From the NCBI GenBank assembly GCA_000092065.1, contig CP000588.1: 64,000 bases of DNA; one strand, 5' to 3'. The DNA is from Ostreococcus lucimarinus. Taxonomy: Eukaryota. The notes under the pieces are model-generated. The model was not told where the DNA came from, searched no databases, and was given only the letters and a program-made list of their open reading frames with translations. How positions within the stretch are numbered: position 1 is the first letter of the stretch; every line of letters starts with the position of its first letter. A program made the translations under genes and the position numbers. This document shows positions 11,200 to 30,514 of this stretch, in pieces.

Positions 11200-12753
11200 C
11201 TACGATTTATCGCCGGGAAGAGCGATCGATTTAGGCTTGCGCTGACGAACTTTTTTCGACTTTGGAACCGTCGCCGGGACGCTGTTCGCCGGGCGCTTGG
11301 CGCCTGCGGCGGCGCCGGCGGAGACGACGCTACCGCTCGACGTCATCCGACGGACGACGACGCTGACGGATCGATCGGTGGAATCGAGCGGTAAGGCGCG
11401 AGACTTCTGCGCGCGACCGATTGCATCTTTCGTTACCGCACCGTCGAGACGTTCGAACGCGTCGTTGGCGCGTTTGGTGTCGGTAAACGTGACGAGGCAG
11501 GAGGTGGTTTTTTTGCCGCCGAGAGCCGCGGAGTCCGTCGTCGTCGCATCGAGAAAGCTTCCCTGCACGCTCTCGATGTGCGCTCGATCGGTTTCTTCGA
11601 ACACCATCTTCAACGCCTCCGCGCTCGTCCCACGCGGAATGCGATGGATAAAAAGCTTGCACAGGTCCTCGGCGTCCACTTTGTGCGGCGGCGCGTCCAC
11701 CTCAAAGATGGGTTTCGCCTCGCGAACCGCCCATAACACTAAGTCTAATGCCGCTTTGGCGTCCTCGACGGAATCGTGATAGCCCGCCTCAGTTTGTCTC
11801 ATCTTTCGTTTGAGCAAAGTTTCGCACAAAATCGCCAAGCTCGGCGTCGACCGAGGGAGATTCTTGTAACGAAACAACATTCCAGTGTCGATGACGGGTT
11901 GATGGTCAATCTTTAAAGACTTCAAATCATGCATCAACGAATGACCCACGAGCACAGTTCCCGGTTTACACAACTCCACGAGTCTATCCTGCACGTCGCT
12001 CAACGTCGTCGGCGCCGCGAGGACGTTCTCCGCCTTCAACCCAGTAATCTCCGTTCTCATGTCGACGATGTTCCCCGGCGGCTTCACGAGCGTCTTCAAC
12101 AAAATATTTCCCTCATCATCCACCACGGACACCCCGACGAGCGCTCGCGTGTCGTCATCCGTCTCACACATCTCACAATCCACCCCCAACAACCTCGGCT
12201 TCATCTCTTTCTCCACGCACCAACGCACGGGTCGATACTTTGTCCGTCGCCACGGCGGTTCGTGCGACGGCAACCGATAATACGCCTCCGCGAACCCCTC
12301 ATGCTTTCGCGTTCGTCGCACCAGCGCCCACGCTCGATCACCCTTCGCATCGACGACCTCGTCGTCGCCCCACTCGTCCCACTCCGCGCGTTTCTTCCGC
12401 CATTGATCGTGTTTCGTCAGCGCCGTCACGCGCGCCGTCCCGAGCGCCGTCCCGAGCGTCTCCACAAACTTTCTCAGCGTCTCCGCCGTGTGCCGGCTCG
12501 GATCGCCTCGTTGGTTCTCCGGTCGCTTCACGTTCGCCTTGAGCCACGCCTTGAAGTCGCACCCCGGGTGTTCGCTCGGCGCGGCGGTGAATCGACGCTG
12601 CGCATCCTTGACCACGCGCACGAGCGCGGCGAATTCCTGTTCGAGACGTGACCGCGTCAGTCCACAGCGCGCCTCGCGACGACGCGCGCCATCTTCCACG
12701 CGCGACGAACGACGCGACGCGCGCGCGCGCCGCACCTCGGCGCTCGTCGGCAT
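11200..12753 (-). CDS. DEDDh 3'-5' RNA exonuclease of the REXO1/small-RNA-degrading-nuclease type.
   Basis: The exonuclease motifs LLGVDCEM (Exo I), GHSLMHDLKSL (Exo II) and YHDSVEDAKAALDL (Exo III) are present, with a C-terminal RRM-like region. Only 92 bp separate its stop from the start of the downstream gene. Confidence 0.65.
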   Translation of the reverse strand: MPTSAEVRRARASRRSSRVEDGARRREARCGLTRSRLEQEFAALVRVVKDAQRRFTAAPSEHPGCDFKAWLKANVKRPENQRGDPSRHTAETLRKFVETLGTALGTARVTALTKHDQWRKKRAEWDEWGDDEVVDAKGDRAWALVRRTRKHEGFAEAYYRLPSHEPPWRRTKYRPVRWCVEKEMKPRLLGVDCEMCETDDDTRALVGVSVVDDEGNILLKTLVKPPGNIVDMRTEITGLKAENVLAAPTTLSDVQDRLVELCKPGTVLVGHSLMHDLKSLKIDHQPVIDTGMLFRYKNLPRSTPSLAILCETLLKRKMRQTEAGYHDSVEDAKAALDLVLWAVREAKPIFEVDAPPHKVDAEDLCKLFIHRIPRGTSAEALKMVFEETDRAHIESVQGSFLDATTTDSAALGGKKTTSCLVTFTDTKRANDAFERLDGAVTKDAIGRAQKSRALPLDSTDRSVSVVVRRMTSSGSVVSAGAAAGAKRPANSVPATVPKSKKVRQRKPKSIALPGDKS

Positions 12754-28899: not shown

Positions 28900-29071
28900 A
28901 GCGCGATAGAAATTGATGATTAATTTGTAATGACTACGAGCGATGATTATTTGATTGGTATCTTGCTGAAACTTCGAGTTCGCGCGCGGCTAGATGGACT
29001 GATGACAAAAATCGAGGTCGAACTACTCACCGCCGGTTTAGTCGTCCGGTGTACATCTTTCGCAAAGAGGT

Positions 29072-29088
29072 GGTGTTAAATGAACACC
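29072..29088 (-). promoter_or_regulatory. Predicted 3' UTR hairpin of the H2A mRNA (GGUGUU-CAUUU-AACACC), a candidate histone 3'-end stem-loop.
   Basis: It is a perfect 6-bp inverted repeat with a 5-nt loop, about 100 nt downstream of the H2A stop on the minus strand. It is nearly identical to the hairpin downstream of H2B. Confidence 0.45.
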
Positions 29089-29185
29089 ATGTTTTTTTGT
29101 GAAACACGGCGAGAGCCCGATAATCGTGCCGGGCTTTTTTCGCTATGATCTATTTTTGAAAGCCTAAAGTAACGATTTAAACCGT

Positions 29186-29551
29186 TTACTTCTTGGACTT
29201 CTTCGGCAACAAGACCGAGTGGATGTTCGGGAGAACACCACCGGCCGCGATCGTGACGGTGCCGAGGAGCTTGGAAAGCTCTTCGTCGTTGCGGATCGCG
29301 AGTTGGATGTGGCGCGGCACGATGCGCGACTTCTTGTTGTCGCGGGACGCGTTGCCGGCGAGTTCAAGCACTTCCGCGGCCAAGTATTCGAGCACGGCGG
29401 CCAAGTAGACCGGCGCACCGGCACCGACGCGCGTGGCGTACTTGCCAGCCTTCAAGTAGCGGGCAACACGGCCAACCGGGAATTGCAAGCCCGCCTTGGC
29501 GGATCGGCTCGTCGCCTTCTTGCCAGTCTTTCCTTTACCTCGTCCGGACAT
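29186..29551 (-). CDS. H2A: Histone H2A.
   Basis: The translation [68 protein letters not shown]...[13 protein letters not shown]...LLPKK covers the full length of the H2A family. It is intronless. Confidence 0.95.
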
Positions 29552-29919
29552 CGTGAGTTGTTTGTATTCGCGTGATGGAATGACGCCGGGGCAGACGCCA
29601 ACCGTCGCGACGACGAAAATTTCGCGAAAATCGACTCATCGCCTCACGCGATGTCGCCGTCGCGAGCCAATCAAAACGCGAGTGTACCCGGGGTACATTT
29701 CTAAAACGACCGATCATGATTCAAAATCGTGCGCGCAATTTCTTCATTTACACGTAATCTCGCGATTTGATTGGCTAAAAACGCGAGAGTCACTCCATTT
29801 GACGAGTCATGACCCCTAGATTGTGCACGAAAAATGCGTGAGTCGATTTCGCGAAATCGGCGCTCGTGCGCGCGCGACGACGGCGGCCGGCGTCATTCCA
29901 CGACACGAATACATTCAAA
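29552..29919. promoter_or_regulatory. Shared bidirectional H2A/H2B promoter with mirror-symmetric elements.
   Basis: aaaatttcgcgaaaatcgactca at 29617..29640 and its reverse complement tgagtcgatttcgcgaaatcgg at 29838..29860 are TTTCGCGAAA palindromes resembling E2F sites. A CCAAT box (gagccaatcaaaacgcgag) lies at 29664..29682 and an inverted CCAAT (gatttgattggctaaaaacgcgag) at 29765..29788. The symmetry centre of the TTTCGCGAAA palindrome pair (about 29740) falls at the midpoint between the two ATGs (29735). Confidence 0.5.
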
Positions 29920-30258
29920 ATGGCCAAGAAGCCCGCGCAAAAGAAGCCCTCGGGCGCCAAGAAGGTTGGACGCAAGTCCAAGTCCGAAACCTACAAGATC
30001 TACATCTACAAGGTCTTGAAGCAAGTGCACCCGGACACCGGTATCTCCTCCAAGGCGATGTCCATCATGAACTCGTTCATCAACGACATCTTCGAGAAGA
30101 TCGCCACGGAAGCCGCCAAGCTCGCGCGATACAACAAGAAGCCGACGGTCACGTCCCGCGAAATCCAAACCGCGGTCCGATTGATCTTGCCGGGTGAACT
30201 CGCCAAGCACGCCGTCTCCGAAGGCACCAAGGCCGTCACCAAGTTCACCTCCGCGTAA
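29920..30258 (+). CDS. H2B: Histone H2B.
   Basis: [112 protein letters not shown]. The start is taken at the internal ATG at 29920 rather than the upstream GTG. Confidence 0.95.
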
Positions 30259-30350
30259 GCGTTTTGAACTGGGACGTCTGTCACACTTAGAAATCAAAAA
30301 AAACCAAAATCATAGACCGCTTCTCGACCGAGAGTCTGTCTTTAAACATT

Positions 30351-30366
30351 TGGTGTTCATTAACAC
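30351..30366 (+). promoter_or_regulatory. Predicted 3' UTR hairpin of the H2B mRNA (GGUGUU-CAUU-AACACC), a candidate histone 3'-end stem-loop.
   Basis: It is a perfect 6-bp stem with a 4-nt loop about 95 nt after the H2B stop. It has the same stem sequence as the hairpin downstream of H2A. Confidence 0.45.
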
Positions 30367-30514
30367 CACCTCTGAGCGAAAGATCCGTGCCTACATAAAA
30401 CTAAACCGCTTCACCGCGCCAAAGTAAACAATTTGGCGACGCGTTTGAATTCAAAATATCCGCCCCGAGTCGCGCGCACTGCCCTATGTAAGTGTTACAT
30501 GTCTTCTACGTTGT

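Follow-up and report, generated by a model that had tools for sequence, protein, structure and literature searches.

A hairpin shared by the 3' flanks of the divergent histone H2A and H2B genes of Ostreococcus lucimarinus is very probably a histone mRNA 3' end signal in its green-lineage form

Results

The window, by which we mean the whole 64-kb stretch of Ostreococcus lucimarinus DNA analyzed here (G+C content, 59%), contains two histone genes only, arranged as a divergent pair. The H2A coding sequence occupies positions 29186..29551 on the minus strand and that of H2B positions 29920..30258 on the plus strand, stop codons included. The encoded proteins are identical to O. lucimarinus XP_001419342.1 and XP_001419128.1/XP_001420602.1, respectively, entries that belong to strain CCE9901 in the public protein collection. 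A Sec23/24-family protein encoded near the pair found matches among environmental sequences only in the same collection. The intergenic promoter (29552..29919) is shared, divergent and mirror-symmetric. It harbors mirrored CCAAT boxes at 29667-29675 (+) and 29766-29774 (-) and two palindromic, E2F-site-like TTTCGCGAAA boxes at 29620-29629 and 29847-29856, and a 32-nt inverted repeat adjoins each of the two start codons. The E2F-like TTTCGCGAAA boxes would fit S-phase transcription of the two genes.

Both genes are followed by a hairpin with a 6-bp stem. That of H2A, GGUGUU-CAUUU-AACACC (29072..29088, minus strand; 5-nt loop), lies 97 nt past the stop codon, in agreement with the preliminary description of this DNA, which had reported GGTGTT-CATTT-AACACC at 29088..29072 and about 100 nt from the stop. 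The H2B hairpin, GGUGUU-CAUU-AACACC (plus strand; 4-nt loop), is found 93 nt past the stop codon; its sequence was as earlier described, but its coordinates had to be shifted by one base, from 30351..30366 to 30352..30367. The remainder of the two 3' flanks aligned poorly. Searching the 64 kb for GGTGTT-N4-5-AACACC returned two sites, both of them the hairpins of H2A and H2B, while 100 dinucleotide-preserving shuffles of the window yielded no match at all. Many contigs from marine metagenomes encode the exact H2A protein at this locus, with the hairpin unchanged. Thermodynamic z-scores of the 71-nt hairpin contexts were unremarkable (-1.5 to 0), and the case for the element would rest on conservation rather than on predicted stability.

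The conserved unit is larger than the hairpin and consists of an A/C-rich 5' flank, the 6-bp stem, the trinucleotide ACC, a spacer and, from 11 nt after the stem, GAAAGAU. On the H2A side (minus strand), the hairpin is preceded by the A/C-rich, G-free flank ACAAAAAAACAU (29089..29100) and directly followed by ACC (29069..29071), the putative region of cleavage by analogy with animal ACCCA, and then by a GAAAGAU block (29055..29061) resembling the animal histone downstream element (HDE). On the H2B side (plus strand), ACC and GAAAGAU are found at 30368..30370 and 30378..30384, respectively; in both copies, the AAAGA core of the HDE-like block begins 12 nt after the stem. The 23-nt pattern AACACC-ACCTCT-NN-GCGAAAGAT (in RNA form, AACACC-ACC-UCU-NN-GCGAAAGAU) matched without mismatch after both hairpins and had no third site in the window, even when three mismatches were allowed. 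Altogether, the two 3' flanks have approximately 35 nt in common, beyond which no alignment was obtained. The 9-mer ACUAAACCG occurs twice in the window, once in each flank, at 29034..29042 (-), 13 nt past the HDE-like block of H2A, and at 30400..30408 (+), 16 nt past that of H2B.

Two further features of these flanks were recorded. The pentamer UAAAC was enriched 15-70 nt past the ACC in flanks from Mamiellales (16/64 versus 4.3 expected). Several H2B flanks carried GUCUUUAAAC just 5' of the hairpin [window 30330-30345 (+), loci L221, L248, L254 and others]; this sequence is complementary to the AAAGAU located 3' of the hairpin and could support a longer, enclosing stem in 6 of 64 flanks. Being absent from H3 and H4 flanks, the extended GUCUUUAAAC-AAAGAU pairing was rejected as a general feature.

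A covariance model was built from 16 environmental H3 and H4 flanks, to the exclusion of any H2A, H2B or window sequence, and run on the 64-kb window with filters off. Exactly two significant matches were returned, both on the sense strand, one after H2A (29048..29100, minus strand; 62 bits, E = 4e-13) and the other after H2B (30340..30391, plus strand; 34.2 bits, E = 5.5e-6), and GAAAGAU was in register with the model at both sites. The next best match, at 11869..11928 (+), scored 11.6 bits (E = 3.4).

Scanning public metagenomes for TGGTGTTYATT(N)AACACCACC, a motif tightened after a looser scan of viral contigs with GGTGTT-N4-5-AACACCACC had given mostly chance phage matches among those listed, yielded at least 132 matches on at least 120 contigs. 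Among the 132 matches listed, 105 were sense-strand sites situated 25-180 nt past a core histone gene (H2A, 23; H2B, 34; H3, 17; H4, 31), and seven were found 3' of Lys/Ala-rich H1 linker-histone genes. Another 17 were too near a contig end for a gene to be visible, and the remaining three were of other kinds, one being a chance match inside a bacterial ORF. An H2A.X-type gene, the product of which ends in SQEY, also has the hairpin. Far from being absent from other histone genes, the same block was carried by H3, H4 and H1 genes. Among the matches listed, the hairpin was almost confined to sites 25-180 nt past H2A, H2B, H3, H4 and H1 genes, always on their sense strand.

When unique flanks were considered, GGTGTT-N4-5-AACACC was present after 24/30 H2A, 23/25 H2B, 16/17 H3 and 23/23 H4 genes, a prevalence that is biased upward since the loci were fetched by the hairpin motif itself, and in which partner genes of divergent pairs count as only partly independent samples. 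Eight of the nine genes devoid of the GGTGTT hairpin carried structure-preserving 6-bp variants, the ninth being an H3. These variants were GGUGAU-UAUG-AUCACC-ACC, in which the change is compensatory, and CGYGUU/AACGCG, seen in the second H2A gene of Ostreococcus (6 unique flanks).

Related hairpins were encountered on contigs of other origins. Giant-virus MAG contigs (25-31% G+C) carry GGUGUU-UUUC/UUUG-AACACC-ACC at L017 2962-2980 (-) and 3423-3441 (-), in both cases after small non-histone ORFs, and at L022 1214-1232 (+); these copies, which scored 22-23 bits with the Rfam Histone3 model, may be histone-type 3' ends on viral genes. In addition, 77 loci filed under bacterial or archaeal genome records (L138-L214) encode eukaryotic H4, many of them with animal-type stem-loops, which indicates widespread eukaryotic contamination of MAGs. 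At the corresponding site, H4 genes on eukaryotic contigs that contaminate bacterial MAGs carried hairpins of animal type (GGCYCU-UUUC-AGRGCC and relatives), and one low-G+C eukaryote had GGUGUU-UUUC-AACACC-ACC.

Other histone genes of Ostreococcus were also checked for the hairpin. O. lucimarinus possesses a second H2A/H2B pair (loci L011-L015), the H2B gene of which is followed by an identical stem-loop and ACC and then by ACUACGAUAAAGAAU, an A-rich purine block. The H2A gene of this second pair lacks GGUGUU and has instead CGCGUU-UAUC-AACGCG approximately 30 nt past its stop codon, with neither ACC nor AAAGAU. In O. tauri (GCA_002158475.1, L137), H2B is followed by GGUGUU-CAUUU-AACACC-ACC-AUCCCAAAGAUU, A-rich purine block included, and H2A by CGUGUU-UUUC-AACGCG. 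Aligning five Ostreococcus lineages revealed the second-H2A hairpin to be the sole conserved island of its flank, varying through C-G/U-G exchange and in its loop. This CGYGUU-(UAUC/UUUC/UGUUC)-AACGCG form was observed in several Ostreococcus lineages [L011 6397-6412 (+), L137, L281, L332, L318 and L315], and the second-H2A mRNA may be processed or regulated differently.

A number of side observations were made at these loci. Compared to L341, one Ostreococcus haplotype (L342 2075-3205) has a 1.1-kb insertion that encodes a 213-aa ORF and on either side of which the ~120-nt H2B hairpin region is directly repeated; L341 itself carries a second, degenerate hairpin, GGUGUU-CACUC-AACACC-ACA, 120 nt past the first. 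Metagenome contig L016 joins the left neighbors of the first histone locus to the right neighbors of the second, probably as a result of assembly collapse across near-identical histone pairs. A TPP-riboswitch-like match of below-threshold score (29.6 bits, E = 0.04) was found at L011 9472-9577 (-), upstream of an SSF-family transporter gene and in the vicinity of thiamine genes (thiazole kinase, TenA and ThiD/ThiE).

The stem and the ACC that follows it were also found well outside Ostreococcus. In Chlorella variabilis, H2B is followed by GGUGUU-AUUC-AACACC-ACC and then UGGGAAAGAA, and H2A by GGUGUU-AUUC-AACACC-UCC and then UUGGAAA. The H2A gene of Coccomyxa sp. Obi has GGUGUU-AUUUU-AACGCC-ACC, with one wobble change, that of Monoraphidium neglectum the compensated variant GGUGGC-UCUC-GCCACC-ACC, and that of the moss Sphagnum magellanicum the same stem as Ostreococcus in GGUGUU-UUCA-AACACC-ACC. 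With the exception of Chlorella H2A (UCC), all of these genes have ACC after the stem. The metagenomic hairpins fell into two loop groups. In one, with a UAUU loop, the H2A and H2B proteins of those members that have a G+C content of 0.56-0.62 share 90%-identity clusters with the Chlorellales Chlorella, Micractinium, Parachlorella and Picochlorum. The other, with a CAUU loop, comprised Ostreococcus (including clade D strain RCC789) and Mamiellales of higher G+C content, the latter probably Micromonas. In view of its presence in Trebouxiophyceae and in Sphagnum, the element is not specific to Ostreococcus; judging from these sequences, GGUGUU/AACACC followed by ACC represents a green-lineage form of the histone stem-loop rather than an Ostreococcus invention, and the only Mamiellales-specific parts are the CAUU(N) loop and the AAAGAU block. 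Within Mamiellales, the hairpin is located 50-175 nt past the stop codon, its stem is 6 bp long in all copies and its loops are CATTT (29), CATTC (22) and CATT (10).

Thirty histone hairpins, animal-type ones included, were next to each other in a single alignment. All 180 cells of this alignment pair, compared to 34-66% in slid controls, full pairing being expected by construction since the sequences were hand-picked as hairpins; what can be learned from it lies in which positions never vary and in the multiple pair types. The G2-C15 pair is invariant in 30/30 hairpins, both window copies included, as is stem U6, which pairs with A11 in 29/30. Conservation is at least 90% both at U3 of the loop and at the A that follows the stem. 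Four of the six stem pairs (1, 3, 4 and 5) show compensatory changes, and the covariation score was 0.58 versus 0.18 in shuffles.

The block downstream of the hairpin was analyzed by counting motifs in unique flanks against shuffled expectations. Among 61 flanks of the CAU-loop group (Mamiellales), AAAGA occurred in 53 (4.7 expected), with a modal start at position 12 and 41 of the 53 starting at positions 10-13, and AAGAU in 45 (2.4 expected), with a modal start at position 13. Among 35 flanks of the UAU-loop group, which includes Trebouxiophyceae, UGGAA was found in 23 (0.7 expected), with a modal start at position 15. Each motif was at or below chance in the opposite loop group, and both groups shared an A/C-rich 5' flank that is nearly free of G over approximately 10 nt. 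Both copies in the window start AAAGA at position 12, the Mamiellales mode.

UGUAA-type motifs serve as the algal poly(A) signal (PMC13130582). Within 100 nt past the stop codon, UGUAA was present after 8 of the 29 long ORFs of the window; between the stop codon and the hairpin, it was found in none of 53 histone flanks from Mamiellales (0/53 versus 8/29, Fisher p = 1.2e-4). Short contigs considered as a source of transcript ends were discarded, being metagenomic or stopping too near the stop codon to be of use.

At its gathering threshold (34 bits), the Rfam Histone3 model did not match the window; nor, at E <= 10, did it match the 1.7-kb region that surrounds H2A and H2B. When applied to 81 nt alone, it aligned in register with the H2B hairpin and scored 11.7 bits, far short of the 34-bit threshold, and returned no match for that of H2A; UUUC-loop forms scored 22-23 bits. 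We attribute this failure to the deviations of the 5' flank, of stem pair 4 and of the first loop base (C), and to the 5-nt loop. A word-indexed search for SLBP with the human RNA-binding domain retrieved 84 short vertebrate fragments only and says nothing on Ostreococcus, as such a search appears to need many shared 5-mers and similar length. SLBP (Pfam PF15247) was not found by phmmer in the six-frame ORFs of 2.4 Mb of collected DNA. A search for a U7-like gene (anti-HDE sequence, Sm-like site and 3' hairpin) by regular expression and folding revealed nothing convincing, be it in the window itself or in a further 1.08 Mb of DNA from green algae, a crude and weak test given that the Ostreococcus genome is ~13 Mb in size.

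Discussion

The hairpins that follow H2A and H2B in the window are very probably the form taken in the green lineage by the 3' end signal of replication-dependent histone mRNAs. What was directly observed is how the element is built in sequence, that it is confined to histone genes and to one strand, and that it is conserved and covaries. The preliminary description had suggested a lineage-specific element bound by SLBP. [quoted passage not shown] Specificity to the Ostreococcus lineage, in contrast, had to be abandoned, the same stem being found in Trebouxiophyceae and Sphagnum.

From animals, Chlamydomonas and Volvox we infer that SLBP would bind, where cleavage would occur and that poly(A) would be missing, along the following lines. 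In nascent H2A and H2B transcripts, a 6-bp stem would form and close a loop of 4-5 nt. SLBP would bind this hairpin by recognizing its flanks and the second pair of its stem, G-C. Another factor, whether a U7-like guide RNP or a protein, would recognize GAAAGAU at its fixed downstream distance, and an endonuclease would cut in or just past the ACC that follows the stem. The product would be an mRNA ending in the stem-loop, devoid of a poly(A) tail and with a level tied to S phase. The depletion of UGUAA in histone flanks is compatible with a poly(A)-independent 3' end, albeit no proof of it, and the replication histone transcripts of Chlamydomonas are non-polyadenylated (PMC8226298). The core histone mRNAs of Ostreococcus probably lack poly(A). 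If so, histone transcripts would be under-counted in poly(A)-selected transcriptomes and metatranscriptomes.

Three other explanations of the hairpins deserve consideration. They might be cis elements governing the stability or translation of ordinary polyadenylated mRNAs, or the genes might use two kinds of mRNA end, stem-loop and poly(A), as has been suggested for the histone genes of Physarum. Related algae do have histone proteins in the MMETSP transcriptome collection, which is poly(A)-selected, and UGUAA was found 47-79 nt past the hairpin in 5 of 53 Mamiellales flanks. In Physarum, histone mRNAs display a stem-loop and a poly(A) signal together (PMC8600027). Weighed against the depletion of UGUAA in histone flanks, an ACC and a downstream block set at a fixed distance in the manner of a cleavage signal, and the fact that those green algae that have been measured make histone mRNAs without poly(A) (PMC13130582, PMC8226298), we consider this explanation unlikely.

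Since GGTGTT and AACACC, the arms of the stem, make the DNA perfectly palindromic, and a single copy is compatible with a role at the DNA level, the element might alternatively act as the binding site of a dimeric protein, a terminator or a pause site rather than as an RNA hairpin. Yet, its flanks are asymmetric and always oriented with the gene, being A/C-rich before the hairpin and carrying ACC and a purine block after it, and the covariance model matched the sense strand only. Moreover, G-U wobble variants exist (CGUGUU/AACGCG and GGUGUU/AACGCC) and compensatory variants retain RNA pairing despite an altered DNA sequence, making this explanation very improbable. More improbable still, to the point where we give it almost no weight, is that the likeness of the two flanks is a functionless by-product of recent duplication or gene conversion, or a small repeat. 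Ostreococcus histone pairs are admittedly alike enough for contig L016 to join neighbors of both loci, but the two flanks share ~35 nt only, amid surroundings that do not align, and the block recurs after H3, H4 and H1 genes and has been kept across green-algal classes and in a moss.

Of the parts of this signal, the lineage-specific HDE-like block is the likeliest to be new. A purine-rich block after the hairpins hints, at the sequence level, at a cleavage machinery similar to that of animals. We know of no U7 snRNA, Lsm10 or Lsm11 in green algae. The origin of these components has been placed in animals (PMC12117405, PMC5054213), and Lsm10/11 candidates, but no U7, have been reported from Physarum (PMC8600027). 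A two-part, animal-like cleavage signal whose downstream half is read in green algae by a fast-evolving U7-like guide RNP is a tentative and rather doubtful proposal. Under this proposal, a small RNA particular to each lineage would pair through its 5' end with the block, which is AAAGAUU in Mamiellales and UGGAA(A) in Trebouxiophyceae; if true, this would make U7-type processing older than animals. The anti-HDE sequences AAUCUUU and UUUCCA offer a direct handle for finding such a guide RNA, and a lineage-specific block at a fixed distance renders the existence of U7-type machinery outside animals directly testable. On the practical side, the 20-nt hairpin motif is a nearly specific marker by which the histone genes of green algae can be recognized in metagenomes.

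Compared to the animal stem-loop (RF00032, Histone3; the SLBP/HBP site), the Ostreococcus element shares its location in the 3' untranslated region of core and linker histone genes, a 6-bp stem with two G-C pairs at the base and U-A at the top, a U as the third loop base, the ACC after the stem and an A/C-rich 5' flank without G. It departs from the animal consensus in its loop, in one stem pair and in its 5' flank. Unlike animal GGYYYU/ARRRCC, its stem GGUGUU/AACACC has a purine at position 4 (G-C rather than Y-R); unlike the animal UYUN loop, its loop is CAUU or CAUUN, often of 5 nt, with C rather than U at position 1; and its A-run is set back 2-4 nt from the stem, the adjacent 5' bases being AU in H2A and UU in H2B. 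The distance of 50-175 nt between the stop codon and the hairpin in Mamiellales also counts as a difference. The HDE of animals has the core GAAAGAG, compared to GAAAGAU in Ostreococcus, and the two blocks have in common that they are purine-rich, nearly fixed in distance 3' of the stem and different in sequence from one lineage to another. In the complex of SLBP with its RNA, G7 (stem position 2) is the only base contacted specifically, via Arg181, and the minimal site includes a pair of adenines before the stem and a single adenine after it (PMC10388802); of this site, the Ostreococcus hairpins retain G2 and the 3' adenine, which is part of ACC.

Two features bring the element close to its counterpart in Caenorhabditis elegans, where the loop (CUUU) also begins with C and where a lineage-specific block, AAUCC, also occupies the position of the HDE (PMC1924863). 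No U7 has been identified in C. elegans, and yet its histone mRNAs end 3-6 nt past the hairpin (PMC1924863). The two systems differ in that AAUAAA is found just past AAUCC in the nematode (PMC1924863), whereas Ostreococcus flanks have no algal UGUAA nearby.

Closer relatives provide the remaining term of comparison. Both SLBP genes and stem-loop-bearing histone mRNAs devoid of poly(A) have been described from green algae and from moss and fern (PMC13130582), and histone mRNAs of Volvox and Chlamydomonas without poly(A) and with a 3' palindrome were described by Muller et al. (1990) and Fabry et al. (1995), as cited in PMC5054213 and PMC13130582. The Ostreococcus element resembles these 3' palindromes in having a green-algal host, the likeness being one of description, and differs from them in belonging to another class, the Mamiellophyceae. 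Divergent H2A-H2B and H3-H4 pairs with a 3' palindrome and no poly(A) signal are reportedly mentioned in the 1995 abstract. To our knowledge, the AAAGAU downstream block is not part of the descriptions of the Chlamydomonas and Volvox palindromes. Within the known histone stem-loop signal, the element described here is new or at most sparsely documented.
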